Origin: Alphaproteobacteria bacterium
Lineage (GTDB): Bacteria; Pseudomonadota; Alphaproteobacteria; UBA828
NCBI GenBank assembly: GCA_965214705.1
Contig: CBDCCI010000002.1
Coordinates: forward strand, 2,656,001 to 2,720,000
DNA length: 64,000 nucleotides
Direction: 5' to 3'
Position 1 is the first letter of the stretch. The number at the start of each line of letters is the position of its first letter. The notes under the pieces were generated by a model, which was not told the origin of the DNA, ran no database searches, and saw only the letters and a list, made by a program, of their open reading frames with translations. Below are positions 1-16,270 of this stretch, in pieces. The position numbers and the translations under genes are program-made.

Positions 1-761
1 TTGGTCGGGCCCGAGGCGAAGGTCAGCACCGGATAGCGCTCGACGTAAGCCGCGCTCATCAGGGTGCCGTCGTTCTGGCTGATGAAGAAGGGCGCATCGA
101 TCTTGAGTTCCTTCAACGAGTCGCGGAACGCGCCCACCACCTTGGCTGACAGCGAGACCAGGGCAGCATTCATCACCGCCGCGTTCTCGCGCTCGATCAG
201 CCCCACCCGGCCGATCTCGTTGGAGAGCGTGATCTGGGCCTGCGGGTGCTCGGCGCGGATGATCTCGGCGGCGCGGTCCTCCTGCGCGCTGTTGAGCGGC
301 GCGAAGACCGAGGAGACCGCCACCGATTCCAGCCCCTTGGCGGCGATATCGCGGGCAATGTTGGCGATCTCGGCCTCGTCCAGGGGCGAGATTTCGCGCC
401 CGTCCACCTCGTAGCCGCCCTTGGCCATGTAGACGTTGCGGCCGATGGTATCCACCAGGTCGCGCGGCCAGTCGATCAGGGGATTGAGGCTCTCGGTGGC
501 CGGCAGCGCCAGCCGCACGATGGCCACCGGCACCAAGCGTCGTCGCTCGACGATGGCGTTGGTGAACTGGGTGGTGCCGATCATCACACCGGTGACGGTC
601 TCCGGCGCGACCTCGGAGCGGGCCAGCACGCCCTCGATGGCGGCCACCACGCCCGCGCCCACGTCGGCGGTGGTGGGTGCCTTGATGGACGCGACAACCG
701 TTGCACCGTCCATCAGCACCGCATCGGTGTTCGTGCCGCCGACATCGACACCAATTCTCAT
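1..761 (-). CDS. Hydantoinase/oxoprolinase family protein (3' end beyond window start)
   Basis: Not in ORF track. Minus-strand translation from ATG 761: MRIGVDVGGTNTDAVL...MIGTTQFTNA...GGYEVDGREISPLDE...ERENAA...SQNDGTLM...SGPT; RBS CAGGAG upstream. Confidence 0.9.
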   Translation of the reverse strand, partial: MRIGVDVGGTNTDAVLMDGATVVASIKAPTTADVGAGVVAAIEGVLARSEVAPETVTGVMIGTTQFTNAIVERRRLVPVAIVRLALPATESLNPLIDWPRDLVDTIGRNVYMAKGGYEVDGREISPLDEAEIANIARDIAAKGLESVAVSSVFAPLNSAQEDRAAEIIRAEHPQAQITLSNEIGRVGLIERENAAVMNAALVSLSAKVVGAFRDSLKELKIDAPFFISQNDGTLMSAAYVERYPVLTFASGPT

Positions 762-925
762 GCTTTTCTCCTGCGCTTCGTGCTGCCGCATCCTAATCGC
801 AGTGCCATGCGACCGCACCGGCTAACGTCGCGCTGCCGCGCCCGATTGAACGCCGGACGGCAGAGACGTAGACTCCCCGCCAGGCAGCGCCGGCTGAACG
901 GCGTTCCAATGGAAGGGCACCGGCC

Positions 926-1693
926 ATGGCAACGGATGTGAGAGTAGTTACCCCGATCACCACCTGGGGTTTTCGGGACAGCTCCGAGTTTCGCGCCCTC
1001 GAAAGGCCCGACTTGACGATCAGTCATGTCGAGATCGAGACCGGACCGGCCTCGATCGAATGCGAATACGACGAGGCGCTTGCCGTCCCCGGAACGATCG
1101 CGAAGATCATCGAGGCCGAGCGTGACGGCTGCGACGCGGTCGTGATCGACTGCATGGGTGACCCCGGCATGCTGCCGGGACGCGAGTGCGTATCCATCCC
1201 CGTGATCGGGCCGTGCGAGGCGGCGATGCACGTGGCTTCGATGCTGGGTCACACCTTCAGCGTCGTCACGGTGCTCAAGCGCCTGCGCCCGCAGTTCGAG
1301 CATCAGGCGCAGCTCTATGGCGTGCGCGAAAAGCTCGCTTCGGTCCGTGCCGTTTCGATCCCAGTGCTGGAGCTGGAGCAGGATCTCGACCGTACCAAGG
1401 CGGCGCTTGCGGAGGAGGCGGTTCTGGCGGTCGAGGAGGACGGCGCGGATGCGATCATCTTCGGCTGCACCGGCATGCTGGGCTGCGCCGAGGCCGTACG
1501 CCGCGGCCTGCTCGCCAGGGGCTACGACGTGCCGGTGATCGACCCGGTGCCGTGGGCGGTCAAGCTCGCCGCGAGCCTGGTGGACGCCGGGCTCAGCCAC
1601 AGCAAGATCACCTACGAGCGCCCGCCGGCGAAGCCCGTGGTCGGCTACGAGATTCCACCGATGACGAGCCTCACCCGCGACGCCGCCGAGTAG
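926..1693 (+). CDS. Asp/Glu/hydantoin racemase family (hydantoin/allantoin racemase-like)
   Basis: GPASIE, IDCMGDPG and FGCTGM two-cysteine racemase motifs; divergent from the hydantoinase. Confidence 0.88.
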   Translation: MATDVRVVTPITTWGFRDSSEFRALERPDLTISHVEIETGPASIECEYDEALAVPGTIAKIIEAERDGCDAVVIDCMGDPGMLPGRECVSIPVIGPCEAAMHVASMLGHTFSVVTVLKRLRPQFEHQAQLYGVREKLASVRAVSIPVLELEQDLDRTKAALAEEAVLAVEEDGADAIIFGCTGMLGCAEAVRRGLLARGYDVPVIDPVPWAVKLAASLVDAGLSHSKITYERPPAKPVVGYEIPPMTSLTRDAAE

Positions 1694-1907: not shown

Positions 1908-2121
1908 TTGTAGAGAAGGCGCGACTCGAGCGCTGATCAGCCTTGTGCGACTAAGTGCAGGAAACTCGTTATTCGACCGTAGGTGGATGCCGCTCGCGTG
2001 TCAGTCGGCGAAACGGATAGGTCCGCAACTTGTTCGGATAGGTGATCACGGCCGACAAAGACCCGAGCCTCTTCACCGACCGGCCAAGCTTTCGTCTCTC
2101 AGCTTAGGCTGATCGATTTAG

Positions 2122-4814
2122 CTACGGGTGCGGCACTTCCGGCGGTTTGTCCAGCCCATGCCGCTGTGCCACGGAGACGGCGAGGGCCCGCTTATTCACC
2201 CCCAGCTTGGCATAGATATTCTTCAAGTGAAATTTCACTGTTGGTTCCGAGAGCCCCAAGTGCCGGGCGATGCGCTTGTTCGAGTGACCTTGCGCAAGTT
2301 GTTCCATGACTTCCAGTTCACGTGAGCTGAGAATATGCGCTGCCTCTCCATGTTCCCCAGAGCGCATGTCAGACAACAATCGGGCGACGAATTCTACTTC
2401 AACCTCGCTCATGTCGCCGATCCCGGTGGTTCGAACGACTGCCTGCACCAATTGCGCCAGAAATCTACCCTCTTCGGCAAAGGAACCATAAAATCCGCAC
2501 GAGCTGCCTAGGGCGATAGCTTGCTTGAAGGGCTTGGCGGCGGCGCGACTGTCTCCGGATTCATGCAGCGCCATGGACTGCAGGATTAATCCCTTTACCC
2601 GGAAGCGAACCGCATTTGCTTCCTGGGACTTGCGAACCGCCTCGTTCAGTAACTCCACTGCATGGACGGCGTCGCCAAACCGAATGTGGTATCGGGCCAG
2701 GGAAAATGCCGCCATATAGAAGCCGCGCCAACACGCCCCGGCATCTCCTGCATCGGCGTGAGTCAGGCGATCGATATCCTGCAAAGTCAACTCGGCCAGA
2801 TCGGCCCGTTCCGCGCGGACAAACAGATCCAGCCGCTTGTAACAAATAAGGTGCTGAAGCCGGTGCATGTTTCGCCGCCTGATCGTCCGCTCCGCTTGAT
2901 CGAGTATCTCGGCCGCGGCCTCAAGGCCGCTGTTGGCATACGCCACCTCCATGGCCACTCGGCCGCGGCCTCAAGGCCGCTGTTGGCATACGCCACCTCC
3001 ATGGCCACCGTGTATCCCGGAACATAAAGCTCGCTCCACCCTTCCCTGACCTCGATATCGTGAAGCGAATTGAAAATACGCCGGCTGGCGGCCATTGGGT
3101 CGCCGCGTTCGAGATGGATTTCCGACAAGAGCACGGAAGCGATGCCCGCGAGCCCCCTGTCAGCGGGAAAATACCGCTCAGCCAGTTCTAGCGCCGTTGA
3201 CCTTCGTTTCTGGGCATCGGAGAGAAGACCTTCTTCAAGATCAATAATGCTAATGTTGATATGAATAAAGAACTGGAGATATTTAGCATCGAGATCCCGA
3301 TAGTAGGCCATGGACCTCTCGCCGGACAGTCTGGCATTCTTCAGATCGCCTGCCTGGATCTGCGTGACGCAAAGAATATTATGAAGAACTCCTCGAACGA
3401 GCGGTTCCGATTCTTGTGTCGATCGTATCAAACTCTCAAAGCGAGCAATATCTTCATCTGAAATCATCAGGTCTTCATAAATTCGGAGAAGCGCGCCGAT
3501 CAGCGTGATCTCGTCGGCCAGATCGCGATCGTCGGCTGCGCCTTGGGCGACGACTTCGTCGAAAAGCTTGGCGGCCTCAACGATCCGCCCTTCTTTCGCA
3601 AGGACGTAAGCAAAACACAACTTGGCGCGCGGACTGGCATGAACCGCATTCGTAGGAATATGATCCAGGAGAGATCGGAGATAACCCACACCCTGTCTTA
3701 TGCCGACTAGTACGCCGCCAGCGTTTTCGACATATCCTATCGCCCGCGCGTAAGCGTTTCCTGCCTTGGCGTGGTGCATAGCGGACTGGAGATCATCGGC
3801 AGCGAAGAACCAATCGGCAGCGCGTCGATGTAACGCATCGACATGCTCCCTGCCGAGATAAATCTGCTGTTGCCGCAAGAACTCCAGAAACAGTTGATGA
3901 TACCTGAACCACCCGTCTTCGGGAGCATCACTCCTCGAAATCAGGACGCCGGCCTTCCAAGTCTCGAGTAATTTCTCCCATCCGTCATTTCGCTCTCGAA
4001 CAGCATCTGCAAGATCGCCGTTCAAACGCTCCAGATGCGCCGTCTCCAGCAGAAATTGTTGTAGGTCTTCCGGAAGTTGTTTGAACACGCGTTCATTGAG
4101 ATAATCGGCCAACTCGGCCCGCGATCCGGACAGGCTGCTGACATGTCGCTCGAAGGGAACGCTGCCATTGTGGGTCAGGTGTGTCAGTTGAACCGCGACC
4201 GGCCACCCTTCGGTCCGCTCAATCAACTGCCTCGAAACCTGCTCGTCCAGCGGTTGATCGAACAGCACTCCTATGTCCGCTTCGCAGAATCTAAGGTCGT
4301 CGACCGTGATCTCGTGGACTTCACCTTGCAATCTCAATCCTGAGACCGGAATGCCCGAACGCTCTCTAGTTGCAATGACGATATGCAAGGTTTGTGGGCT
4401 GTTGTGGATAAGGTATTCGAAAAGCTCGAGGCATGCGCCGGTATCAGCGAAATGCGCGTCGTCTATGATCAGGCATGCCTCCACACCGCTTTCGCGCAAC
4501 AGCGTTGTCAACATCGAGAGGCGAGCAAGCGGCTCCGTATCGCCCGAAACGGAAGCGTGAACACCGAGGTCAGCCCTGGCCGCCTGTTCCAGGAGCGCGA
4601 TCAACGACGTCGGATCGCAATCGCGGCGTTCAATTTGAACCCAGGCCCAGGCAATACCGGAACTAGCTAACCTGGTGCGCAGCTGATTCAGTAGGGTCGT
4701 CTTGCCATATCCGGCCGGTGCGTCGATCAGCGTCAGACGCCGCCCAAGATTGTCCTGAATGCGGTCGAGGAGCGGTGTCCGTTCGATCAGTACGACCCTG
4801 TCCGGTAAAGCCAT
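2122..4814 (-). pseudogene. MalT-like (LAL) LuxR-family ATP-binding transcriptional regulator, frameshifted
   Basis: N-terminal APAGYGKTT Walker A, IIDDAH, TEGWP, FRYHQLF (ORF 2787..4814); C-terminal LuxR HTH LSSRELEV...SNKRIA..L..SEPTVKFHLKNIYAKLGV (ORF 2122..2958); frames split by a 50-bp tandem duplication. Confidence 0.88.
2908..3007. repeat. Perfect 50-bp tandem duplication
   Basis: CTCGGCCGCGGCCTCAAGGCCGCTGTTGGCATACGCCACCTCCATGGCCA at 2908-2957 and 2958-3007. Confidence 0.95.
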
Positions 4815-5087
4815 CGACCCATGCCCGGCAACTGGTCCGGCTCGAATCTTAGTCCATGGACGGTTTGTCGACCAAGCTGGCTGATCGGCGGATCACAGCG
4901 GAGCAGGACGGCCCGCCTGGCAGGACGATCGTCTCCAGGTCTGGCCGCCTGAATTCCAGGCGGCCACGTGGCCGTACGACGTTGTAGTGTTGTTCGGCGT
5001 GCAAAACTGCTCCCCCCAGTATCACGCCACTTCAATAGGTTATCGCGCCGATCGGCGCGCAACTCACGTGCCGAACAACAATCCGGG

Positions 5088-5990
5088 CTAATAGTCGCGG
5101 AGTTCCGAGGCTTCGGTGGCGGCCTTGGCTCCGCCGCGCATCCGGCCGCTGATCCAGACGCCGAGTATCGTCGCTAGATAGGGCAGCGAGAGCAGCACGT
5201 CGTGCGGGATGCTCGCGCCGAAGAGAAGCTGCAGCCTGATTCCCGCGACGCCCACCAGGCTGAAGAACATCGCGGCGAAGGCAGCGGCGACGGGATGGCC
5301 CGCGCCGAAGATGACGGCAGCGAAGCTCATGAAGCCGCGTCCGGCGGTCATGTTCTGGGCGAAGATGGTGAGGCCGCCGGCCGCAAGCTCTGCCCCGCCG
5401 AGGGCGCAGAGGATGCCGCCGGCCGCCAGCGCGATGAGCCGCGCGGTGGCCGGACTGGTGCCCACGCTGCGTGCCGCCAGCGGGTGCTCGCCGGCAGCGG
5501 CCAGACGCAGGCCGAAGCGCGTGCGGCGCAGCAGCACCCACATGCCCCACACCACAAAAGGCATCATCAGAACGAAGATCGAGAGCGCACCGTAAGGGCC
5601 AAAGGCCGCGCCCAGCCGGGGCACGCCAAAAGGCGCGGTCACGGCCGCGAGGCTCCCGAAAAGGGCCTGCACCGCCAAGGCCGTCCCGCCGATCCCGAGC
5701 CCGGTGAGGCCGAGGCCTGCGATGATCGGGTTGGCGCCCAGCTTCTCGATCACGAACCAGAGCAGCACGGAGGCGGCGACGCAGAGCATGCAGGCGATGC
5801 CGATAGCGGCCGGAAACGAACCGGTCAGCACGATGCCGAGAATTGTCGCGCAGGCGCCGATGATCATCACGCCTTCGAGGCCGAGGTGCCAGACGCCGGC
5901 GCGCTGGGCGATGACACCCGCCATGGTGACGTAGACCAGGGGCGTACCAGAGCGCAGAATCGCCACCATGAACTCGTGGAACTCGGTCAT
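5088..5990 (-). CDS. Nucleoside/BMP-type ABC transporter permease
   Basis: Start MTEFHEF in ATGA overlap with the upstream permease; GVWHLGLEG, RTRFGLRLAAAGEHP, MTAGRGFM, LPYLAT motifs. Confidence 0.88.
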   Translation of the reverse strand: MTEFHEFMVAILRSGTPLVYVTMAGVIAQRAGVWHLGLEGVMIIGACATILGIVLTGSFPAAIGIACMLCVAASVLLWFVIEKLGANPIIAGLGLTGLGIGGTALAVQALFGSLAAVTAPFGVPRLGAAFGPYGALSIFVLMMPFVVWGMWVLLRRTRFGLRLAAAGEHPLAARSVGTSPATARLIALAAGGILCALGGAELAAGGLTIFAQNMTAGRGFMSFAAVIFGAGHPVAAAFAAMFFSLVGVAGIRLQLLFGASIPHDVLLSLPYLATILGVWISGRMRGGAKAATEASELRDY

Positions 5991-7033
5991 GTTGGCAGCC
6001 TGGCGGCCCGCAGGAGGCGGTCCAACAGCCCCGATTTCGCAGTGATGAAGAGCGCGACCGAGGCGTTGAAGATGTCGATGGCGGCGGCTGGCAATCCGGC
6101 CAGAATTGGCAGGTAGAGCGCGGCCGACGCGAGGCCGCCGAAGAACATGCTGACGACCGCCGTCGCGAGCACCGAAAGGTTGGCGACCAGCGCAATGAGC
6201 ACCGCAGTGAAGCCGTGGCCGGGCAGAAATCCGCTCGCGATGCGCCCGGTCGGGCCGAGAAGCTCGATGGTGCCAGCGAGCCCGGCCAGTCCGCCGCTGA
6301 TGAGGAAGCTCGAAAGGCCCAGGGTCCAGAGCCGCGCGCCCTGAAAGCGCACCATTGTCGGGTTGCGCCCGGCGAGGCTCGCCAGCATGCCGAAAGGCGT
6401 ACGGTTGACCAGCACCCACATGGCGAGCGCGACGGCAGCGGCAATGCCGATGATGGCGGGCGAGATGCCCTGTGAATCGCTGATGCGATAGACCGCCGGC
6501 AGCAGCGGGCTCGCCGCCTGCTGCCCGGTGCCGGAGGGGTCCTTGAGCGGACCCGAGGTGACGTAGACCAGCACGAGGGCTGCGATGAAGTTGCCCATCA
6601 GCGTCGTGATGACCTCGTCGGTACCGGAGCGAAGCCGCAAGTATCCCGGCCAGAGCGCCCAGAGCGCGCCCCCCGCCATGCCGGCGAGAAAGGTCGCCGG
6701 CAGCACGAGGGCGGCCGGGCCGCCGCCGAGCAGGTCGGTGACGAAGGCAGCGCAGATGGCGCCCACATAGAACTGGCCCTGCGCACCGATATTGAAGAAG
6801 CCGCAGCGGAATGAGATTGCGACGCCGGTCGCGGTGATGAAGAGCGGGAGCGCCCAGCGCAGGCTCTGCGTCCAGCCGCCCGCCCGCAAGAAGGCGCCCT
6901 CGACGACGCTCTCGAGCATCAGGAGCGCCGAGTAGCCAGCGAGCTCGAAGACGATGCCGCAGAGCGCGAGCGCGAGAACGATGAAGGCGAGCGTGCGGAT
7001 TACCGCGCCTGCGCGGATGCGGATGCCGCTCAT
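5987..7033 (-). CDS. Nucleoside/BMP-type ABC transporter permease
   Basis: FNIGAQGQ, EVITTLMGN, GGLAGLAG, GFTAVLIAL; hydrophobic helices. Confidence 0.9.
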   Translation of the reverse strand: MSGIRIRAGAVIRTLAFIVLALALCGIVFELAGYSALLMLESVVEGAFLRAGGWTQSLRWALPLFITATGVAISFRCGFFNIGAQGQFYVGAICAAFVTDLLGGGPAALVLPATFLAGMAGGALWALWPGYLRLRSGTDEVITTLMGNFIAALVLVYVTSGPLKDPSGTGQQAASPLLPAVYRISDSQGISPAIIGIAAAVALAMWVLVNRTPFGMLASLAGRNPTMVRFQGARLWTLGLSSFLISGGLAGLAGTIELLGPTGRIASGFLPGHGFTAVLIALVANLSVLATAVVSMFFGGLASAALYLPILAGLPAAAIDIFNASVALFITAKSGLLDRLLRAARLPT

Positions 7034-8610
7034 TCGACCGCTCCGGTCATGGCGCGGCCCACCGAGGCGATGTCGTAGGGCGGAACGAACTCGGCGACAA
7101 TGCGGCCTGAGAGCATGACCACCAGGCGGTGGCTGACGTCGAACAGCTCGTCGAGGTCAGAGGAGATCAGCAACACGCCGCAGCCTCGTCCGGCCGCCTC
7201 GCGCAGCGCCGACCAGACAAAGGCGGTGGCACCGATATCGAGCCCGCGCGCGGGCTGCGCGGCGACGATGAGGCGCGCGTCTTCGTCGATCTCGCGCGCG
7301 AGGATCACCTTCTGCGCGTTGCCGCCAGAAAGCGCGCCGGCGTTCTGTGCCGCCGACGCATAGTGCACACCCCAGGCTTGGAGCGCCTCGTCGCAGCGCC
7401 TGCGCTGGGCGGCCGGGTCGACGAAACTGAACAACGGCCTTTGCATCAGATCGCGAACGGACCAGTTCTCCCACAGCGCGCTGGTGAGGCTGAGGCCCTC
7501 GCTGTTGCGCTCGAAGGGGATGACGCGCAAGCCCAGCGCGCGACGGGCGGCGGGGCTCGTGCGGCTCGCACGCGTTCCACCCAGGTGGAGTTCGCCACCG
7601 GTCACGTCGGTAAGTCCGGCGATCGCCTTCACCAGAGTCCCCTGGCCGTTGCCCTGAACTCCGGCGACGCCGACGATCTCCCCCGGCCGGACCGCGAGGG
7701 AAACCCGGTCGAGCGGCGGTTCCTCGGGCTCCTTCGCCGTGCTCACGTCGGCGAGTTTGAGCACCGCCTCGCTGGCGGAGGGCTTCGCCGCGGTGGGACC
7801 ATGGTGAGCGGCGGCGCTTCGAACCGGCGCCGCCCCGACTAGCGTCTGTGTATCGTCGGCGCCAACGGCGCCCACGGCGGCTTGGCCGACGATCATCTCG
7901 GCGATGCGCTTCTCGTCCGCCCGCTCGCGTGGGATCGGTCCGGCGACCAGCTTGCCTCCGCGAAGGACGGAGATCGTGTCCGCCACCGCCATGACTTCGC
8001 GGATCTTGTGCAGGATCAGGATCACCGTGACCCCGTGCCGCTTGAGGCTGCGGATACGCTCGAAAAGGGCTTCGATGCCGACGGGCGGGAGCACTGCCGT
8101 CGGCTCGTCCAGAATGAGCAGCCTGGCGTCGGTGACCAGCGCGCGAGCGATCTCCACTCCCTGCTGCACCTCGACCGGCAGGTCGCGGATGCGCCGGCGA
8201 GGGTCGACATTGAGATCGAGGGCCGCGAGCCGTTCGCGGCATCGCTTCAAGATTTGCCGACGGCTGTAGAGGCCAATGCCACCGCCCGCGCCGAACTCCA
8301 GCGCCTCCGCCACGGTGAAGGAGGGCGGCAGCGCGAAGCTCTGGTGCACGAGCTCGACGCCCGCCGCGCGCGCGCCGGCCACACGGCCGAGACGCAACGC
8401 GCGCCCCTCGATAGCAAGGGTCCCTGCGTCGGGGCGGACGAGCCCGGCCGCGACACGGGCAAATGTCGTCTTGCCGGCGCCGTTCTGGCCGACCACGGCG
8501 TGTATCGCGCCGCGCGCGAAGGCGATTTCGAGATCGGCGAGCGCCGTCACCTCGCCGTATGTGACGCGAATCCCACGGCAACGGAGGGCCGGCGGGTCCG
8601 CGGCGGCCAT
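7030..8610 (-). CDS. Nucleoside/sugar ABC transporter ATP-binding protein (two ABC domains)
   Basis: GQNGAGKTT, LILDEPT, LSGGNAQK, QPARGLD; start taken at MAAADPP. Confidence 0.9.
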   Translation of the reverse strand: MAAADPPALRCRGIRVTYGEVTALADLEIAFARGAIHAVVGQNGAGKTTFARVAAGLVRPDAGTLAIEGRALRLGRVAGARAAGVELVHQSFALPPSFTVAEALEFGAGGGIGLYSRRQILKRCRERLAALDLNVDPRRRIRDLPVEVQQGVEIARALVTDARLLILDEPTAVLPPVGIEALFERIRSLKRHGVTVILILHKIREVMAVADTISVLRGGKLVAGPIPRERADEKRIAEMIVGQAAVGAVGADDTQTLVGAAPVRSAAAHHGPTAAKPSASEAVLKLADVSTAKEPEEPPLDRVSLAVRPGEIVGVAGVQGNGQGTLVKAIAGLTDVTGGELHLGGTRASRTSPAARRALGLRVIPFERNSEGLSLTSALWENWSVRDLMQRPLFSFVDPAAQRRRCDEALQAWGVHYASAAQNAGALSGGNAQKVILAREIDEDARLIVAAQPARGLDIGATAFVWSALREAAGRGCGVLLISSDLDELFDVSHRLVVMLSGRIVAEFVPPYDIASVGRAMTGAVE

Positions 8611-8645
8611 CTGTTCCGAGAGCGCCTCCTGATCAGGGCGTACCT

Positions 8646-9719
8646 TCAGAGCTCCGTGTTGAACGGCACTTGGACCGATCCATCGAGGATGCCCGCCCGC
8701 GCCGCCTCGACCGCGGGCCACGCCTGGTCGGACCGCGCGACGATAGCCGCCGGCCCCTGCTCTCGATAGAGCGGCGAGCGGAGGAAGTCGATGACGCCGC
8801 TGCCGAGGCCCGTCGGGACATGCCGCCCGCCCTGCCACTCGGCGGCCAGCGCCGCGCTGGTCTCGTTATGGAGAGACTGGCCGAAGTCGAGGCTGACCAC
8901 CCCGATCACGGAGGCGGGCCCGAGCGGGTACTGGGCCGGATCGAGTGCGCTGACCATGGCGCCCTCGCGCTCGTTGGCCGCCTGGATAATGCCGCCGTCG
9001 GTCGCGGCGGAATCGGTCTGGATGTAGTCGATCCCGTCCAGGAACATCTGGCTCGCGATCTCGTAGCCCTTGGCCGGGTCCTGGAAGGAGCCCGCGAAGG
9101 CGGCGGTAACGCTGGCGTCCGGGTTGACCGCGTGCACGCCTGCCTTGAGCGCGTTGTAGTCGGCATTGATCGGCGGAATGCTGATGCCGCCGATGAAGCC
9201 GATCTGCTTCGATTGCGAGACGTGCGCGGCGAAGATGCCCGACAGATAGCAGCCGAGATAGTAGTCGTAGGAGACCGTCACCAGGTTTCCGATCGGCGGG
9301 TCGACGGCGTCGCCGAAGAGCTGGATCCACTTGGTATCGGGGTAGATCGGGGCCACCGCCTTGAAGGCCTCGGAGATGACCGGGAAGGTCCCGAGCACGA
9401 TGGAGGCACCCGCATCGCCAAGGGTGCGCAGCACGGTCTCGTAAGTCGCCGGGTCCTGGGCATAGATCGTGCGGGTCTCGAAGCCTTGCGCCTCCGAGAA
9501 TTGGTTGAGCCGGCCCATCATGGAATCGATGGGGCCGCTGTCGCCGGCCGCCTGGGTGTGAACCAGAGCGACGAGGCCTGCGCCCGCACGCGCGGCAAAG
9601 GGCAGCGCAACACTCGCGCCGACGACCGCAGAAACGCCGGCGGTCGCCGCCAGGAACCTGCGGCGGCTGAGGCGCGCAAACGGTGCGCCTGGACCAATCG
9701 CATTCGGCTTGTTCGACAT
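8646..9719 (-). CDS. BMP family (basic membrane protein) nucleoside-binding protein with Tat signal
   Basis: SRRRFL twin-arginine leader; IGFIGG, AGSFQDPAKG motifs; GAGGA RBS. Confidence 0.85.
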   Translation of the reverse strand: MSNKPNAIGPGAPFARLSRRRFLAATAGVSAVVGASVALPFAARAGAGLVALVHTQAAGDSGPIDSMMGRLNQFSEAQGFETRTIYAQDPATYETVLRTLGDAGASIVLGTFPVISEAFKAVAPIYPDTKWIQLFGDAVDPPIGNLVTVSYDYYLGCYLSGIFAAHVSQSKQIGFIGGISIPPINADYNALKAGVHAVNPDASVTAAFAGSFQDPAKGYEIASQMFLDGIDYIQTDSAATDGGIIQAANEREGAMVSALDPAQYPLGPASVIGVVSLDFGQSLHNETSAALAAEWQGGRHVPTGLGSGVIDFLRSPLYREQGPAAIVARSDQAWPAVEAARAGILDGSVQVPFNTEL

Positions 9720-9796
9720 GGCGTTTTTCCTCCTCTCCCACGGGCGCCCGTTGCGCCCGGTTGGCATTCGTGGGCAGGCCCCCATCGGCGGACCGT

Positions 9797-10123
9797 TCAA
9801 TCGGCGATGGGCGGTGAGCAGGGCGCCGGGTTCATCACCATCACGTCCTGCTCCTGGATCGCGTCGAGCGCCCAGACCGACTGGATGAAGGCCTGCCATG
9901 CGGGGTCCGCGCCCATCGCGGCGCGGCGCTGCTCGCGGTCGGCCAGGCTCTGGTAGGCCCAGATCAGGACAATCCGATGCAGCCGGCCGATCTCGGAGAC
10001 GTAGAGCCCGACGAAGCGGCCGAGATGGCGCCTCTGGATCGGCAGGCCTTCCGCCTCGTACTTCTTGAGCCAGCCATCCACTGTGCCGGGACGAAACGTG
10101 TAGGTGCGATGCTCGACGATCAT
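9797..10123 (-). CDS. NIPSNAP family protein
   Basis: MIVEHRTYT.RPG...EIGRLH...IWAYQSLADR..RRAAM..DP.W; ATGA overlap with GMC stop. Confidence 0.9.
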   Translation of the reverse strand: MIVEHRTYTFRPGTVDGWLKKYEAEGLPIQRRHLGRFVGLYVSEIGRLHRIVLIWAYQSLADREQRRAAMGADPAWQAFIQSVWALDAIQEQDVMVMNPAPCSPPIAD

Positions 10124-11781
10124 TCCTGGGTCCCCTCCAGCGGCGCATGGGCTTCGCCCACGCCGAGAATGAACTCGGCCGCCTTCTCGCCGATCATGAT
10201 GGCGGGCGCGTTGGTGTTGCCGCTGACGATGACCGGCATGACCGAGGCGTCGGCGACCCTGAGCCCGGCGATACCGTGGACGGCGAGTCGGGCGTCCACC
10301 ACGGCCATCGGGTCCCCTCCCATGCGGCAGGTGCCGACGGGATGAAAGGTCGTCATGGCGTTGGCCCGGAGCCACGCGGTGAGGTCGGTATCGCTCTGCA
10401 CCGCCGCGCCAGGCGCAAGCTCGGGGCCGCGGTAGGCGTCGAAGGCCGGCTGTGCGATCACATCACGAACCATGCGGATGCCCGCGATCGTCGTGCGGCA
10501 GTCGGCCTCGCTTTGCAGATAGTTGGGCTGAATCAGCGGCGCGTCGGCGGGATTGGCGGAGCGCAGGCCGATCCAGCCCCGGCTCTCAGGATTGAGCGGT
10601 CCCACGCGCAGGCTGAAGCCGTGGGAATCCTCCAGCGGTGCCTTCCGGAACGGATTGGGGACGTGCAGGTTCGCCGCGCTTTCCAGCGCCGGCATGAAGT
10701 GCACCTGGATGTCCGGCGCCACCTTCTCCGCCCGGCTCTTGAGGAAAGCGCCGGCTTCGTATGGGAAGGTGGTCGCGACGCCGCGGCCGAACAGCATCCC
10801 CTCCGCCACCGAGCGGATGAGCCTGTCGGCGCGCAAGTCCCGGTAGAGGGTAATGGACTTGGTGCAGGCATAGGCGAGGACGCAATCGACGTGGTCCTGC
10901 AAGTTGCGTCCGACGCCGGGAAGTTCGTGCACCACCGAGATGCCGTGCCGCTTGAGCACGTCACCGGGCCCGATCCCCGAGAGCATGAGGAGCTGGGGCG
11001 AGTTGACGGTGCCGGCGCAAAGGATGACCTCACGCTCGGCGCGGATGGTCCGCGCACCGGCCTGCTGCGCGACCTCGATCCCGGTGGCGCGGGCTCCCTC
11101 CACGCTCACGCGGTGCACCAGGCTATTGGTTAGAATCGCCAGATTGCGCCGATGTCGGATCGGGTTGAGGAAGGCGGTGGAGGCTGAGCAGCGCCTGCCC
11201 CGCCTGATGGTGAAGTCGTATCGGCCGACGCCTTCTTGCTCGTCGGCCCCGTTGAAGTCGTCGTTGACGGGATGACCCGCTTGGCGGCCCGCCTCGACGA
11301 ATGCGTCGAAAAGCGGATTGACGCCGCGCGCGCGGCAGACCGTGAGCTCGCCTTCCGTCCCGTGGTAGGCCCCATCCCGCTCCAGGTGCCCTTCGGAGCG
11401 GCAGAAAGCCGGCAGGACCTCGTCGTAGGACCATCCTGGGAGACCCATTTGCGCCCAGCGATCGTAGTCGTGGCGATTGCCGCGCACGTAGATCATGCCG
11501 TTGATGGTGGACGAGCCGCCGAGCACCTTGCCGCGCGGCCAGTAGAGCGAGCGGCCCTCCAGGCTATGTACCGGCTCGGTGTGATAGCGCCAGTTGTAGA
11601 TGCCCGAGTGGAACAGCTTGCCCATCAGCATGGGCAGGCGAAACAGGGGGTTGCGGTCCTTCCCGCCGGCCTCGATCAGCAGCACCGAGCGGTCGGGATC
11701 TGCCGAGAGCCGGTTGGCGAGCACGCAACCGGCAGAGCCTGCGCCCACGACGATGTAGTCGTATGACCGATTGCGGGGCAT
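10120..11781 (-). CDS. GMC family FAD oxidoreductase (choline dehydrogenase-like)
   Basis: GAGSAG, PRGKVLGGSSTINGM, GRNLQDH, FHPVGTCRMG, GNTNAP. Confidence 0.93.
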   Translation of the reverse strand: MPRNRSYDYIVVGAGSAGCVLANRLSADPDRSVLLIEAGGKDRNPLFRLPMLMGKLFHSGIYNWRYHTEPVHSLEGRSLYWPRGKVLGGSSTINGMIYVRGNRHDYDRWAQMGLPGWSYDEVLPAFCRSEGHLERDGAYHGTEGELTVCRARGVNPLFDAFVEAGRQAGHPVNDDFNGADEQEGVGRYDFTIRRGRRCSASTAFLNPIRHRRNLAILTNSLVHRVSVEGARATGIEVAQQAGARTIRAEREVILCAGTVNSPQLLMLSGIGPGDVLKRHGISVVHELPGVGRNLQDHVDCVLAYACTKSITLYRDLRADRLIRSVAEGMLFGRGVATTFPYEAGAFLKSRAEKVAPDIQVHFMPALESAANLHVPNPFRKAPLEDSHGFSLRVGPLNPESRGWIGLRSANPADAPLIQPNYLQSEADCRTTIAGIRMVRDVIAQPAFDAYRGPELAPGAAVQSDTDLTAWLRANAMTTFHPVGTCRMGGDPMAVVDARLAVHGIAGLRVADASVMPVIVSGNTNAPAIMIGEKAAEFILGVGEAHAPLEGTQE

Positions 11782-11784
11782 CTG

Positions 11785-12630
11785 TTACCAGTCCACCGCA
11801 GCCGCGCCCATCGCCTTGAGACGCTGGTTGCAGAGCGTGAACGGATTCTCTTGCCCGAGGACCTCGTCGGCTGCCGCCGGATGCGGGCGGAGGATGAGGC
11901 GCTCGTCGCCTGCGTCGGACCCGTTTAGCCCCGCCGCGCTGAGCGTCTCCGCCGCCGCGTCGCCGAAGCCCAGGAAAACGACCGGCGTTCTTCTCCGCGC
12001 GAGATGGTCGAGCACCCGAGCCATCAACGGCCGCCAGAGCGGCAGATGCCCCCGCGCCTGATGCGGATCGCCCGCGCGCTGGAAGCGGGTCAGCGTGAGC
12101 GAGGCGTTGAGGAGCAGCGCGCCGGACCTCACCCAGCGATCGGCAAGGTCCGCAGGCTCTTCAAGCTCGACTGCGCCGTCCTCGATAGCCGCCAGTGTTG
12201 CCGGCCATTGCGCGAAGCTGCGGGCGTAATCCGCCTCCCCGGTCCGGGCGGCCACGATGAGCTGAACGACCGCACGCACGCTGGGGGAGAACATCTTGTC
12301 GAGCTCCCGCCAGCGAGCGACGTTGCCGGCTTCGAAGGCCCGTCCGGTGGCGAAGGCGGGGCAGGGATAGGGGTCCTGGCCCAGGATCACGCAGCGCACG
12401 TCCTCCGGCGCGACCCCGTCGAAGGCGCGGAACATGTGTGCGCCCGCCGGAGCACCCGGAAGGGTCCGGCCTCGCCGGGCGGGAAAGATCGGCTCCCAGG
12501 GTCCAAGCTCTAGCGTGGCGTCAACCTGCTCGAAGCCCAGCGCGACATCGGTGATGACGTCGCGCCAAGGGGACGCGATGTCTTCCTGCCAGCCCTCGAG
12601 CGTCTCCCGGAGCGCCGCCCTCAGTTGCAT
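11785..12630 (-). CDS. Family-1 uracil-DNA glycosylase-like protein (atypical)
   Basis: ILGQDPYP, GRAF, W..SGALLLNASLT, VFLGFG, HP, C-terminal NPF..CN..L...VDW; start at 12630 (GGAG upstream). Confidence 0.8.
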   Translation of the reverse strand: MQLRAALRETLEGWQEDIASPWRDVITDVALGFEQVDATLELGPWEPIFPARRGRTLPGAPAGAHMFRAFDGVAPEDVRCVILGQDPYPCPAFATGRAFEAGNVARWRELDKMFSPSVRAVVQLIVAARTGEADYARSFAQWPATLAAIEDGAVELEEPADLADRWVRSGALLLNASLTLTRFQRAGDPHQARGHLPLWRPLMARVLDHLARRRTPVVFLGFGDAAAETLSAAGLNGSDAGDERLILRPHPAAADEVLGQENPFTLCNQRLKAMGAAAVDW

Positions 12631-12670
12631 CGCTACCGGCTCCGCTCGCCTCGCCTGAATCGGAAAAACC

Positions 12671-12719
12671 TGACACATGTGTCATGTTTCACGATCCATC
12701 AACCTGACATGCGCGTCAA
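12671..12719. promoter_or_regulatory. Two RutR-like operator boxes (TGAC-N6-GTCA)
   Basis: TGACACATGTGTCA (12671-12684, perfect palindrome) and TGACATGCGCGTCAA (12705-12719); the E. coli RutR consensus is TTGACCAnnTGGTCAA. Confidence 0.7.
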
Positions 12720-12809
12720 GTATTTTGTGCCCCTCCAGCCTGAATGTGGGGCTAGACTGCGAGCGGCGCTGCCGATGGACCTCGTCGGCGAGCAGTGCAG
12801 GGGACGAAA

Positions 12810-13472
12810 ATGGCGAAGGCAGTGCGTGCGGGCGAACGGAAGGAAACGCCGGAGCTGCGTATCCGGGCCCGGAACGAGGAGAAAATCCTACGCGCCGCCG
12901 TCGGCCTCTTTGCCGACAAGAGCTTTCACGGCACCCATATCAAGGAAATCGCGAGGGTTTGCGGCCTGCCGAAGACGAATGTCTATTACTACTTCCCCAC
13001 CAAGGAGAGCATCTATACGGCGGTGATCGAGCGGCTGATCGAGGGCTGGGACCGCGCCTTCGAGCATATCGTGCCCGAGCGCGAACCACGCGAGGCCATC
13101 GCTGCCTATATTCGTGCAAAGCTCGAGTATTCCCGCCGCCACACCACCGAATCCCGCTTCTTTGCCAACGAGATTTTGCGCGGCGCACAGTTTCTGGAAC
13201 GGCGCCAGCGCCAGCATATCCGCGAGGTCACCGACCAGCGCGCCCACGTGGTGGAGGAATGGATCAGGCGGGGACACATGGCGCCGGTGGACCCGCGCCA
13301 CTTCTTCATCATGCTGTGGTCCGCGACCCAGTTCTACGCGGATTTCGGAATGCTGGCCGCCGACGTGCTCGGGCGGCGACGGCTCACGAGGACGGACTTC
13401 GACGCTGCGGCCGAGACCATGACCAAGGTCATCCTGGACGGATGCTGCGGCCCAGCCGCATCGTCGCAATGA
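12810..13472 (+). CDS. rutR: TetR family regulator, RutR-like
   Basis: IRARNEEKIL.AA..LFA...IA...GLPK.NVYYYF.TKE HTH; YIRAKL...SR.FANEIL.GA and VDP.HF...LW.ATQ.YADF of the RutR-type C-terminal domain. Confidence 0.8.
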   Translation: MAKAVRAGERKETPELRIRARNEEKILRAAVGLFADKSFHGTHIKEIARVCGLPKTNVYYYFPTKESIYTAVIERLIEGWDRAFEHIVPEREPREAIAAYIRAKLEYSRRHTTESRFFANEILRGAQFLERRQRQHIREVTDQRAHVVEEWIRRGHMAPVDPRHFFIMLWSATQFYADFGMLAADVLGRRRLTRTDFDAAAETMTKVILDGCCGPAASSQ

Positions 13473-13687
13473 GAGCAGCTCAGTTCCTCTCGCAGGAAGG
13501 CCTTGGCTGCCCGACGGTGACGGCGAAGCCTGCGCTGCCGGCGCAAACGCCTTCATGAATTAATCTGTTACCTCGTACTTCCTAGAATGCCGACCGGAAG
13601 CCGCGCAGTTGTTCGGGGGCTGGCTCCGCGAATGCGCGGCGGGCGCTGCCGCTCAAGCCCCGCCCGGGTCAAACGCCAATTGCACAC

Positions 13688-13716: not shown

Positions 13717-13840
13717 GATTGGAGTCAATTTCCCACGATTAACAACAGTCAAGGAGCCAGATTGGATCCGGATTGCTCTCCCGGACGAAGGCGGCGAGGG
13801 GTTCATCTACGCGCCGCTGCTGGGCGAGCCGGAGGTAGCG

Positions 13841-14140
13841 GTGCTCAAGCCGTTCGGTCCGAACTGGTCAATCACCGAGAACCAGCCTTGCCAGGTGTGG
13901 AATCACAGCAACCGCGACTACGAGCCGTTCGCCAGGTCTGGCGGGTGCGTGGACGGCAAGGCCTCGGGCGAGGGCCAGTTGACCTACCGCGGTGGAGCGG
14001 GGTTCTGGTTTGGGACGACGGTTTCCGCTACGAAGGCGAACTTCGCGACGGTAGGCAGCACGGCCGAGGTACGTTTGTGAGGGCGAATGGCAATCGATAC
14101 GAGGGCGAGTGGCGCGACGGCCGGCCGCACGGGCAGCTAT
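13841..14140 (+). pseudogene. MORN-repeat protein fragment, frameshifted and truncated
   Basis: Frame A: CQVWN...SGGCVDGKASGEGQLTY; frame B: WDDGFRYEGELRDGRQHGRGTFVRANGNRYEGEWRDGRPHG; ends just before the IS4 element. Confidence 0.75.
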
Positions 14141-14160
14141 CGCCCCAGGGCGCAAGGAGG

Positions 14161-15518
14161 CATATGCGCTAACTTGTTTGCGGTTCTTCGATGAAGCGTT
14201 CCGCGGTTTGGGTCAGGCGCCGTCGGGACGGTTCGGAGAGGGATTTGGAGATCTGGTTCCATTGGTCGATCACCTCGGCGAGGGACAAATGGGGTTCGAT
14301 GGCTCGCACGCCCTGGTTGAGCATGAACCTGAAGTCACGCCAGGCGCTGTGCGGCCGGCAGCGCCTCCAGGCTGTATCCCCAGGGGGAAACCGTGCCGGC
14401 ATGACGGATCAGCTTTTCCACCAGCAGCGCCACCAGGAGTTTGCCGTAGAGCCACGCCTTGGCGCTCTCGTCGTCGTATTTGGGCAGATGCCCCAACTGC
14501 GCCAGAGACTTGAAGCGCTTGAAGACCAGTTCGACCTGCCAGCGGGTGCGATACCACTCCAGGACCTGCGCCGCGCTGAAGGCCGCTTCGGGAAAGGTCG
14601 TGAACACGATGACGTAGCGCGCGAACTCCAGGGTTCGCGGCCGAACCTGCTTGCCCTTGCGCCCGGCCTCCTTGCGCAGCTTGCGCTGCGCCAGCCTGAT
14701 GGCTTCCTGCGTCTTTCTGATCGCGCACACGCGCCCCGGCACCGCGATGCCGTCGCCGACCGCCAGCACGGGCCAGGATCGCACGCTGCCGACCCGCTTC
14801 AGCGTCGTGACGTGTGCAAGCAGGTCGAACGGCGCGCCGTCGCGCGTTCGAAGCGACAGCGACCCGGTGTTCACGCGCACGGTGACGTGACCCCCCGCAG
14901 ACACCACGTGGTGGAGGCCCGCAGCAGTCGAGTACGCCCGGTCGGCGAGCACAAAGTCGCCCTCGCCGACCGGGAACTGCGAGAACGCCTCGCCCGTGCC
15001 CCGTCCCTCGCTCGCCGTGAGCTTGAAGAAGTCGCACGCCAGCGACGGAAGGCGCACGCTGTAGTGCAGGCGCCACAGCGCCCCGGTCCGGCCCGGCTCC
15101 TTCACCGTCGTCGCGTCGAAGGCCCTGACCTGGAACCCGCCAGCGGCCGACATCGCCATCCCCTGTTCGCGAAACAGCGCGACGCACAACGCGTGAAGCC
15201 AATCCCCCGACTTCCTCAGCCGCTTCAACAAGGCCACGTCGGACAGATCGGCCAGGTTCGCCTTCCTCGCACGCACCACGGTCTCGCGCAGCGAGTGTCC
15301 GCAGGCCAGATGCAGCAACAGCGTGCGCAGCAGGGCATCGACCGACTTGTCCTTGCGCAGACCCTTCAAGGCCCCGGTCTCCCGTGCCAACTCCCGCCAG
15401 CCCTCGGGCAGAAACAACGACACCACTTCCCACTCCTCGTCCATCCGCCAAGCCTCCCCGCAGCGCGCACCAACCCACAATACGGAGTGCCGACATGACA
15501 AACAAGTTAGCGCTTATG
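14161..15518 (-). mobile_element. IS4-family insertion sequence (1358 bp)
   Basis: 20-bp terminal IRs CATATGCGCTAACTTGTTTG (14161-14180) / CAAACAAGTTAGCGCTTATG (15499-15518), 1 mismatch; no clear TSD. Confidence 0.85.
14335..15444 (-). CDS. IS4-family DDE transposase
   Basis: FDATT, LADRAY, YRTRWQVELVFKRFKS (YREK signature). Confidence 0.9.
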   Translation of the reverse strand: MDEEWEVVSLFLPEGWRELARETGALKGLRKDKSVDALLRTLLLHLACGHSLRETVVRARKANLADLSDVALLKRLRKSGDWLHALCVALFREQGMAMSAAGGFQVRAFDATTVKEPGRTGALWRLHYSVRLPSLACDFFKLTASEGRGTGEAFSQFPVGEGDFVLADRAYSTAAGLHHVVSAGGHVTVRVNTGSLSLRTRDGAPFDLLAHVTTLKRVGSVRSWPVLAVGDGIAVPGRVCAIRKTQEAIRLAQRKLRKEAGRKGKQVRPRTLEFARYVIVFTTFPEAAFSAAQVLEWYRTRWQVELVFKRFKSLAQLGHLPKYDDESAKAWLYGKLLVALLVEKLIRHAGTVSPWGYSLEALPAAQRLA

Positions 15519-15543: not shown

Positions 15544-16221
15544 TCAGGCCGTGTCGAGGCCCGCCTGCCAGAACGCGGCCTCCAGCCGGGTCGCGGTGCG
15601 GAAGGTCTCGGCAAGCTGCGCGAAGCGTCCGGCGCCGCCGCGTCGCGCTGCAAGCGCATCCAGTGCCTCGATCTCGGCACACATGAACGCCTGGTACTGA
15701 TCGCCAGCATACATTTCGATCCAGGGGCCGTAGGGATTGCCCGCGCCATGCGCCCCAGGCTCGGCCGCAAGGCGGGCGCCGATCTCGCCGTAGCCGATGA
15801 CGCAGGGCGCCAGCGCCACGCGCAGGTCGAGCAGGTCGCCCGCCAGCCCGCGCTCCAGCACGTAAGCCGTATAGGCGAGGGTCGCACCATCGGCCTCGAC
15901 CGCTTCCAGGTCGGCCTCCACGATCCCCCAGTCGGCGCAGTAGGCCCGGTGCAGGTCCATCTCCACCTCGACCAGCGCCTTGAGGCCGTCGGACGCCGCG
16001 CGGATCTCGGCCAGCGTGTCCGCCTTGTATGCGGCGAGCCCATAGGCGCGGGCGAACTGGATCAGGAACAGGTAATCCTGGACCAGGTAGTGGCGGAACG
16101 CGGCCTCCGGCAGGGTGCCGTCGCTGAGGCCCTGCACGAAGGGATGCTCGACATACGCCTGCCAGTCGTCCCCGGCGGCCTCGCGCAGAGCAGCGAAGAA
16201 GCCCGTCTCCGCCTCCGTCAT
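15544..16221 (-). CDS. tenA: Thiaminase II / TenA family
   Basis: HPFV..L.DGTLP...F.HYL.QDYLFL, LAPCVIGY (catalytic Cys), NPY..WI..Y, E..FW. Confidence 0.9.
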   Translation of the reverse strand: MTEAETGFFAALREAAGDDWQAYVEHPFVQGLSDGTLPEAAFRHYLVQDYLFLIQFARAYGLAAYKADTLAEIRAASDGLKALVEVEMDLHRAYCADWGIVEADLEAVEADGATLAYTAYVLERGLAGDLLDLRVALAPCVIGYGEIGARLAAEPGAHGAGNPYGPWIEMYAGDQYQAFMCAEIEALDALAARRGGAGRFAQLAETFRTATRLEAAFWQAGLDTA

Positions 16222-16270
16222 CGTCGAACGTCCCGCCTGGCCTGCGTGGGATGGGGCGCCGGGCACTCCA

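Follow-up and report, generated by a model that had tools for sequence, protein, structure and literature searches.

The systems closest to the one described here are the repressor RutR of Escherichia coli, the family-1 uracil-DNA glycosylases (Ung or UNG), the nucleoside importers of the PnrA/BMP type and the thymidine salvage route of fungi. The RutR operator has the consensus TTGACCAnnTGGTCAA, and in fungal salvage an isoorotate decarboxylase turns 5-carboxyuracil (5caU) into uracil. We know of no member of the uracil-DNA glycosylase (UDG) superfamily which acts on anything besides nucleic acid. We have analyzed a stretch of 64,000 nt (the window) of the genome of an alphaproteobacterium (assembly GCA_965214705.1, contig CBDCCI010000002.1), which contains eight adjacent genes coding for a UNG-like protein (UNGL), a GMC flavoprotein oxidoreductase, a NIPSNAP-family protein, an ABC importer of the BMP type and a RutR-like TetR repressor. 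These genes quite probably encode a dedicated sensor, an importer and a three-protein converter for a uracil-type pyrimidine, rather than a DNA repair system, and they suggest that a repair fold has been recruited to process a pyrimidine nutrient.

Several features of the known systems are needed for the comparison, and are taken from three papers. E. coli RutR binds uracil by means of L74, W77, L78 and W167, and thymine is excluded since its 5-methyl group clashes with L78 (PMC4325133). In UNG, the Tyr of the GQDPY motif blocks 5-substituted uracils. BdiUng (Blr0248) of Bradyrhizobium diazoefficiens is a UDG without motif B and with a motif A of the GQDP type, in which Ala replaces Tyr (GQDPA), and it has no stacking Phe. 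In vitro it excises uracil, 5-hydroxymethyluracil (5hmU) and xanthine from DNA, including single-stranded DNA (PMC5449639). The fungal precedent proceeds from 5hmU to 5-formyluracil (5fU) and then to 5caU (PMC4787775).

Conservation and control of the gene cluster

Our survey of homologues, with one genome per species, gave 100 stretches containing a relative of UNGL. The best 80 of these loci, with relatives 53–85% identical, were retained, and their cluster content was scored by tblastn with the eight window proteins. The complete eight-gene set is found in the window order in 66 of the 80. GMC lies directly after UNGL in 77 loci, while NIPSNAP is present in 73, BMP in 71 and the divergent TetR gene in 69. 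From the UNGL stop to the GMC start the median distance is 3 nt, and 70 of the 77 loci have at most 8 nt. The linkage of the eight genes is not due to chance. A recurrent neighbourhood of this kind was anticipated in the original prediction, made from the sequence of the window, and its view of the eight genes as a unit under a RutR-type repressor agrees with their conservation and tight spacing.

Several of the 14 incomplete loci are truncated by contig ends. Locus L032 contains UNGL alone of the cluster, and in L013 UNGL is followed by NIPSNAP, without GMC. Locus L016 is a decaying copy: GMC is found in three pieces (10856–13686) with about 1.8 kb inserted, and both the TetR and the BMP genes are lacking.

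The intergenic region between UNGL and TetR has 179 nt and contains two palindromic boxes of the form TGAC-N6-GTCA. The original prediction had pointed to two operator-like palindromes next to a divergent RutR-like gene, and this has been borne out: at least two boxes, with one mismatch allowed, are found in 65 of 66 homologous intergenic regions and in none of 1320 shuffles. When a position weight matrix (PWM) derived from the homologous boxes is applied to the 7.9-Mb genome of the window, the window boxes rank first and second, and the next best site reaches 17.8 bits. Strong operator matches in the genome are confined to the two sites beside this operon, and this RutR-like gene is the only one found there at the threshold used. 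As the two best operator matches adjoin the operon and there is a single gene of this type, the repressor looks local and dedicated to the neighbouring operon.

The repressor has TetR_N and TetR_C_3 (YcdC-like) domains. It misses the cut-offs of both RutR equivalogs (TIGR03613, 171.3 vs 368 bits; NF011584, 148.3 vs 230 bits), and its alignment with the structures of E. coli RutR contains no gaps (E 5.5e-40). Its residues I77, W80, D81 and W170 correspond to L74, W77, L78 and W167 of RutR. Among 69 cluster-linked repressors, W77 is present in all, W167 in 68, Leu or Ile at the position of L74 in 67, and Asp at the position of L78 also in 67. This residue pattern fits a uracil-like effector which would differ from uracil at or near C5.

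The features of the operon are shown in Table 1. Seven genes, from UNGL to permease 2, are on the minus strand, divergent from the TetR gene on the plus strand, and the GC content of the region is 0.64–0.71. The gene order and spacing given in the original prediction are confirmed by open reading frames (ORFs) and profiles: 3 nt separate the UNGL stop from the GMC ATG at 11781, the GMC stop overlaps the NIPSNAP start in an ATGA at 10120–10123, and BMP, ATPase and two permeases follow. There are 77 nt upstream of the BMP start (9719) and 35 nt upstream of the ATPase start (8610), and two further ATGA overlaps of 4 nt join the ATPase to permease 1 and permease 1 to permease 2. No terminator-like sites were found within the operon on its strand. 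The longest UNGL frame covers 11785–12678, and its upstream ATG overlaps operator box 2. Since this ATG falls in an operator and UNGL homologues have 281–284 aa, spanning 95% of the long frame, translation likely starts at the ATG at 12630.

Table 1. Genes and operator-like boxes of the operon region (window positions)
Feature	Position	Strand	Remarks
RutR-like TetR repressor	12810..13472	+	220 aa from ATG 12810; alternative GTG at 12795
Operator-like box 1, TGAC-N6-GTCA	12705..12718		PWM 25.2 bits, second-best match genome-wide
Operator-like box 2, TGAC-N6-GTCA	12671..12684		PWM 26.9 bits, top genome match; within 12+12 nt inverted repeat 12666–12689
UNG-like protein (UNGL), 281 aa	11785..12630	-	Predicted divergent family-1 UNG fold, without Leu-intercalation loop
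GMC flavoprotein oxidoreductase, BetA-like subfamily, 553 aa	10120..11781	-	Pfam and NCBIfam profiles
NIPSNAP-family protein, 108 aa	9797..10123	-	PF07978, E 3.7e-29
BMP/PnrA-like substrate-binding protein, 357 aa	8646..9719	-	Bmp; N-terminal RRRF twin-arginine-like signal
ABC ATPase, two nucleotide-binding domains, 526 aa	7030..8610	-	ABC_tran, two copies
ABC permease 1, 348 aa	5987..7033	-	BPD_transp_2
ABC permease 2, 300 aa	5088..5990	-	BPD_transp_2

Carriers of the cluster are found among alpha-, beta- and gammaproteobacteria. By record title, the loci include metagenome-assembled genomes (MAGs) labelled Alphaproteobacteria or Rhodospirillales, and members of Roseiarcus, Mesorhizobium, Rhizobium, Pararhizobium, Hoeflea, Paracoccaceae and Silicimonas. 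Ten other loci belong to Variovorax, and three are titled Gammaproteobacteria or Enterobacteriaceae. The cluster is also present in 37 plasmid records: 31 of Sinorhizobium, three of Ensifer and one each of Variovorax, Alloyangia and Azospirillum. The Sinorhizobium plasmids are large, mostly records of 1.3–1.8 Mb, and include those of S. meliloti SM11, BL225C, Rm41 and RU11/001; no record of strain 1021 is among the 37 matches. The one plasmid region examined (S. meliloti AK57, L179) is part of pSymA, and its neighbours are toxin-antitoxin, partition and IS30 genes. Because of these neighbours and of the missing 1021 record, the cluster looks like accessory, mobile cargo on the Sinorhizobium plasmids.

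The UNGL family is rare, with about 88 sequence clusters at E <=1e-30. Only one of 400 other Pseudomonadota genomes, drawn evenly, had a match at E <=1e-30, and this single extra carrier contains an orthologous full cluster, not a distant clade. A metagenome scan used the alignment of distant members (A2) together with the pattern GQDPY, a motif also present in canonical UNGs: 78 of the 80 loci retained are ordinary UNG-like genes (22–32% identity), and only L086 and L087 are members of the family. The genomic contexts of distant UNGL clades are poorly sampled.

The UNG-like protein and its partners

UNGL misses all curated family cut-offs. It scores 18.8 bits against a cut-off of 24.3 for the Pfam UDG domain (PF03167), and gives sub-threshold matches to five family-1 ung equivalogs, including TIGR00628 (72.2 vs 185.75 bits) and NF003592 (76.6 vs 162 bits). 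A precomputed Pfam domain is absent from all the 120 close homologues listed. Family-1 UNG chains in the PDB are matched with E 1.8e-12 by the single sequence and E 1.1e-26 by a profile of 52 members. The AlphaFold model, based on an alignment, has a pLDDT of 96.3, and Foldseek finds UNG structures only, with a top-match probability of 1.00, TM scores of 0.61–0.74 (target-normalised) and 18–27% identity. By sequence and predicted fold, UNGL is a divergent relative of family-1 UNG. Its gene is labelled 'uracil-DNA glycosylase' by PGAP on the Sinorhizobium plasmids, and the Protein Atlas clusters matched are solely 'uracil-DNA glycosylase (family protein)'. For this clade the annotation is probably misleading.

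Motif A, GQDPYP, corresponds to residues 84–89. In 52 relatives G84 and P87 never vary, and conservation reaches at least 90% for D86 and Y88; F99, N175 (the Asn of LLLN), H195, H250 and P251 are likewise invariant or conserved at this level. At least 90% conservation is found as well for S117, the Ser of the Pro-Pro-Ser loop which pinches DNA. After His-Pro, the window protein reads HPAAADE and has no Leu wedge, and the length of this segment varies among relatives. Eight canonical UNGs from metagenome loci, aligned with UNGL, have HPSPLS or HPSPRS at motif B; with respect to them, UNGL has insertions of about 12, 8 and 35 residues. UNGL keeps the residues of the uracil pocket and of catalysis, and not the DNA-intercalation loop, a pattern which agrees with recruitment to metabolism.

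The PDB entries of BdiUng (5GN3, 5GNW and 5GRK) do not match UNGL as a single sequence at E up to 1, and are absent from the best 60 of 61 profile matches at E up to 10. BdiUng is not detectably related to UNGL by sequence.

The genome of the window (assembly 98.47% complete, with 8.72% contamination) contains four other matches to the UDG superfamily, three well over the Pfam cut-off and one marginal (27.2 bits), so separate repair-type genes do exist elsewhere in the genome, a point raised in the original prediction. One of them is family-4-like and another is Mug-like, both under the NCBIfam cut-offs. No canonical family-1 ung was found in the genome by the Pfam and NCBIfam search. The strongest match (140 bits; L001 911–2065, minus strand, G000:C2 ~345295–345747) is part of a 384-codon frame with a C-terminal MoaB domain (molybdenum cofactor), which may be either a fusion or an over-extended ORF.

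The GMC protein has both domains of its family (PF00732 GMC_oxred_N, E 1.2e-55; PF05199 GMC_oxred_C, E 2.8e-38). It passes the cut-off of the PRK02106 subfamily (665.7 vs 605 bits) and fails that of the betA equivalog TIGR01810 (562 vs 732.1 bits). The GxGxxG motif and, in the C-terminal domain, H480, N522 and N524, which we take to be the catalytic residues, are invariant across 37 orthologues. Its structural relatives oxidize alcohols, including hydroxymethyl groups on heteroaromatic rings: they include pyridoxine 4-oxidase, 5-hydroxymethylfurfural (HMF) oxidase and aryl-alcohol oxidase. Elsewhere in the genome there are eight GMC paralogues, 41–51% identical to that of the operon. The NIPSNAP protein covers positions 2–102 of the 102 in PF07978 (101.3 bits). 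Its structural matches are NIPSNAP structures of unknown function, and no NIPSNAP gene other than the operon copy was found in the genome.

Proposed function and alternatives

The genes found around the core in other genomes point to pyrimidines. All ORFs of the 80 loci were clustered without prior assumptions in order to find genes which travel with the core. Only two extra genes are recurrent, both immediately after permease 2: an inosine-uridine nucleoside hydrolase, closest to RihA and under the RihA cut-off, and an Amidohydro_1 protein of the TRZ/ATZ/deaminase group. The hydrolase alone is found in 9 loci, both genes in 12, the aminohydrolase alone in 27 and neither in 32, including the window. 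One or both genes are thus present in 48 of the 80 loci, and the RihA-like hydrolase in 21. No shared genes were found further downstream in the five genomes compared.

In two gammaproteobacterial loci, L078 and L082, the UNGL-GMC-NIPSNAP core and TetR are found amid pyrimidine genes, and only there is the core flanked by genes of the reductive (Pyd) pathway. The neighbours code for a CN-hydrolase, a dihydropyrimidinase (601.6 bits, cut-off 393), a CoA-acylating methylmalonate-semialdehyde dehydrogenase, an NCS1 nucleobase symporter, a TonB receptor and a thymidine phosphorylase (609.5 bits, cut-off 570.7). These two loci also contain a luciferase-like oxidoreductase labelled 'F420-dependent' (TIGR03842, 484 bits, cut-off 295; 5918–6979, minus strand, in L082). 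No dihydropyrimidine dehydrogenase was seen among the annotated ORFs of L082, and the oxidoreductase may stand in for that step.

Other variants are also found. In L012 the core is preceded by an 81%-identical TetR, a glyoxalase-fold gene and an ABC system of the PotD/SBP_bac_8 type, as identified by Pfam; L011 has the same TetR (80% identical) and a matching ATPase, seen by tblastn only. A second copy of the core, without the BMP system, is present in the MAG of L006 (locus L018). The importer is therefore variable, mostly a BMP ABC system but NCS1 in L078 and L082 and PotD/SBP_bac_8-type in L012, while the core is constant, which suits a base as the common substrate. Since the importer varies while core and sensor persist, and both hydrolase and aminohydrolase are optional, we infer that the three-protein core works on a free uracil-type base. 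Pyrimidine metabolism is supported as the genomic context elsewhere. No signature enzyme of the Rut, reductive Pyd or oxidative barbiturate pathways is matched by any of the eight window genes in Pfam and NCBIfam.

The general scheme would be as follows. A uracil-type pyrimidine would bind the RutR-like repressor, and the operon would be de-repressed at its two operators. The BMP-type system would import the pyrimidine or its nucleoside, and conversion would take place in the cytoplasm by UNGL, the BetA-like GMC and NIPSNAP, with a small molecule, not DNA, as the substrate of UNGL. Where present, the RihA-like hydrolase would free the base and the aminohydrolase would turn a cytosine-type base into its uracil-type form. 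The recruitment of a UNG fold to metabolism, already suggested in the original prediction, fits both the residue pattern and the pyrimidine context. For oligonucleotides, which it also considered as substrates, we have found no evidence.

Our best guess for the substrate is a C5-hydroxymethyl pyrimidine. Phage, dinoflagellate and oxidised DNA would be the sources of such pyrimidines. We infer that 5hmU, which could also be reached from its nucleosides or from 5-hydroxymethylcytosine, is the simplest substrate using every part. Only tentatively do we propose that 5hmU is oxidized by GMC and that UNGL then removes one carbon to give uracil. GMC would oxidize the -CH2OH group at C5 to the aldehyde, perhaps on to the acid. 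UNGL would bind the base rotated 180 degrees about the N3-C6 axis, with C5 where N1 sits in UNG substrates, so that Tyr88 faces the unsubstituted N1 and C5 lies beside Asp86 and His250. Water attack, assisted by Asp86, and an enolate stabilised by His250 would then release the one-carbon group as formate or CO2, leaving uracil. Such a route would give bacteria a flavin-dependent equivalent of the final steps of fungal thymidine salvage. In this proposal, which we regard as doubtful, the UDG fold would have become a small-molecule enzyme that breaks a carbon-carbon bond of uracil at C5, a hydrolase or decarboxylase of 5-formyl- or 5-carboxyuracil with the ring reversed, and the repressor would be a RutR paralogue retuned at the residue which faces C5. 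As a whole, this explanation is reasonably likely, with the general scheme as its probable part and the specific mechanism as a tentative one.

Several observations weigh against this account. The Tyr of GQDPY is kept in UNGL, so 5-substituted bases would fit only with the ring turned round, a mode of binding which is pure conjecture on our part. BdiUng still excises bases in vitro, so the loss of motif B is no proof that activity on DNA has been lost. The nearest GMC of known structure is a choline dehydrogenase (E 6.9e-136), which is silent on a pyrimidine substrate. NIPSNAP has no step in the proposed mechanism, and the TonB receptor in L078 and L082 is unexpected for a small free base. Finally, four distant relatives of UNGL (33–42% identity) are found in unrelated contexts: L086 lies beside a protein kinase, the Variovorax plasmid copy follows an amidohydrolase, the Alloyangia copy adjoins an exonuclease-domain gene and the Azospirillum copy is near another GMC gene. 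The association with the cluster, on which the original prediction depended, thus holds almost always for homologues with at least 53% identity and does not extend to these four.

Other explanations have to be considered. UNGL might hydrolyse the N-glycosidic bond of 2'-deoxyuridine or a similar deoxypyrimidine nucleoside, with NIPSNAP as a mutarotase-like helper and GMC oxidizing 2-deoxyribose to a lactone. This would be the least departure from UNG chemistry, with all catalytic and uracil-pocket residues kept, and BMP importers carry nucleosides, to judge by the family name. Rih-type enzymes need a 2'-OH and cannot hydrolyse deoxynucleosides; the RihA-like hydrolases of 21 loci would handle the ribonucleosides. 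The window genome has no pyrimidine-nucleoside phosphorylase above cut-off, but four of the five cluster-bearing genomes tested do, and a thymidine phosphorylase lies beside the core in L082. No lactonase, deoxyribonate or sugar-acid genes are linked to the cluster, the NCS1 and PotD-type importers of the variants are not nucleoside systems, the change of Leu78 to Asp in the repressor is left unexplained, and the nearest GMC relatives oxidize mostly primary alcohols, not anomeric carbons. We consider this explanation unlikely. It is rather more improbable that UNGL still works on DNA, as a glycosylase of a new UNG-like family which is co-expressed with the importer and clears an imported base analogue from the DNA. 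Tight coupling to a flavoprotein (median 3 nt, at most 8 nt in 70 of 77 loci) and the leading position in a catabolic-type operon under a metabolite sensor are hard to reconcile with such a role, as are the missing Leu-intercalation loop, with a replacement of variable length, and the presence of other UDG-superfamily genes in the same genome. On the other hand, the residues of motif A and the Phe, Asn and His are kept, S117 is conserved, no canonical family-1 ung was found in the window genome, and BdiUng provides the precedent of a protein without motif B which nevertheless acts on single-stranded DNA containing uracil, 5hmU or xanthine.

Two more alternatives keep a metabolic role for UNGL. 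Bacteria that degrade C-glycosides use first a GMC oxidase and then a C-deglycosylase. By the same logic, GMC could oxidize a ribose hydroxyl of pseudouridine, and UNGL, with uracil turned round, could break the C5-C1' bond. The importer is of the nucleoside type, the Asp of the repressor near C5 could bind a ribosyl hydroxyl, and PsuG was not found in the window genome. But GMC is BetA-like, not pyranose-oxidase-like, and PsuG is present in four of the five other cluster-bearing genomes, compared with 24 of 151 sampled genomes of the class, which means that the cluster is no substitute for the known pseudouridine route; we see little chance for this alternative. The least probable explanation, and a very improbable one, is a flavin-dependent first step of oxidative degradation, where UNGL would hydrate uracil or thymine at C6 and GMC would oxidize the hydrate to barbiturate. 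A uracil pocket with an activated water does lie beside an alcohol dehydrogenase, and the window genome has a gene of the barbiturase family; but this family is present in only one of the five cluster-bearing genomes tested, that of the window itself, and the gammaproteobacterial variant is tied to the reductive, not the oxidative, pathway.

Surroundings of the operon and comparison with known systems

Outside the eight genes, no window gene recurs when the ORFs of the 80 loci are clustered. At the beginning of the window (3–818, minus strand) there is the N-terminal part of an N-methylhydantoinase/5-oxoprolinase-like gene, which runs off the window start, and divergent from it an Asp/Glu/hydantoin racemase (926–1693, plus strand). 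The original prediction suggested that this pair might serve the pathway; the pair exists, but it is not conserved beside the cluster in the 80 loci, and we do not count it as part of the system. Between the pair and the operon lies a STAND/LuxR regulator (2122–4814, minus strand), in a stretch of low GC (2001–5000, 0.535–0.586 against about 0.68 around it). It consists of two overlapping minus-strand ORFs, 2787–4814 (STAND/AAA NTPase) and 2122–2958 (MalT-TPR and LuxR/GerE), and has the appearance either of a single MalT-like regulator broken by a frameshift or of an island acquired immediately after the operon.

Beyond the repressor there is a small ORF with a match to the MORN repeat (13762–14172, plus strand, E 4e-12) and, 2 kb past the repressor, a gene of the TenA/THI-4/PQQC family (15544–16266, minus strand, E 1.3e-43), thiaminase II-like. 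This TenA gene, together with the NMT1/THI5-like and PotD/TbpA-like binding proteins of variant clusters, prompted us to consider the pyrimidine of thiamine (HMP) as the substrate. It is no longer our leading candidate, since the TenA gene does not recur next to the cluster in other genomes and since the RihA-like, thymidine phosphorylase and RutR-type components indicate rings of the uracil type. Elsewhere in the genome, a gene of the barbiturase/cyanuric-acid-hydrolase family is found at C1:1179010–1180080, and a broken second copy, with internal stops, at C1:2628722–2629338.

The eight-gene system is undescribed in the full-text literature searched, whose coverage leaves out subscription journals and the supplementary regulon tables of PMC5343134. 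In agreement with the original prediction, we have found in print no pathway with this gene set. The enzyme core of UNGL, GMC and NIPSNAP in a putative metabolite-controlled operon for pyrimidine utilisation is unprecedented. The operon is a concrete instance in which the recruitment of a repair fold to metabolism can be tested, and should UNGL turn out to act on a small molecule, this element would be of a new kind. With a modified pyrimidine as its substrate, the cluster would fill a gap in the ways by which bacteria recycle modified bases of DNA or RNA, and NIPSNAP proteins would gain a first defined context; if the specific mechanism is true, bacteria would recycle 5-hydroxymethyl pyrimidines into uracil by means of UNGL and GMC. 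Some carriers are cultured and tractable, such as S. meliloti SM11, BL225C and Rm41, as well as Variovorax, Rhizobium and Mesorhizobium, so the substrate could be found with ordinary genetics and biochemistry.

In summary, each part of the cluster comes from a known superfamily, and the combination matches none of the Rut, reductive, oxidative or fungal salvage pathways. The repressor resembles E. coli RutR and PydR-type repressors in its TetR_C_3 ligand domain and in both Trp residues which sandwich uracil, and its boxes have the TGAC-N6-GTCA spacing of the RutR consensus given above. It differs from them in falling under the equivalog cut-offs and in the Asp at the specificity position, Leu78, and from RutR in that its strong sites are found only at its own operon, with none at rut, pyd or carAB genes. 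The importer has the composition of PnrA/BMP nucleoside importers, with a Bmp binding protein, a fused double ATPase and two BPD_transp_2 permeases, but the window BMP is only weakly similar to binding proteins of known structure and ligand (best E 2.3e-23). Fungal thymidine salvage, with its thymine-7-hydroxylase and isoorotate decarboxylase, shares only the proposed chemistry, from 5hmU through 5fU and 5caU to uracil: the cluster has no 2-oxoglutarate dioxygenase or Amidohydro_2 decarboxylase, and contains a flavoprotein and a UNG-fold protein instead. BdiUng, also from a rhizobium, shares with UNGL a GQDP-type motif A without a classical motif B, but lacks the Tyr and the stacking Phe which UNGL keeps. 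Family-1 Ung and UNG share with UNGL the predicted fold, GQDPY with the catalytic Asp, the stacking Phe, the Asn of LLLN and His-Pro. They differ in having the HPSPLS loop and in lacking the three insertions; ung is normally a stand-alone repair gene, whereas UNGL is the first gene of an operon for transport and oxidoreduction.

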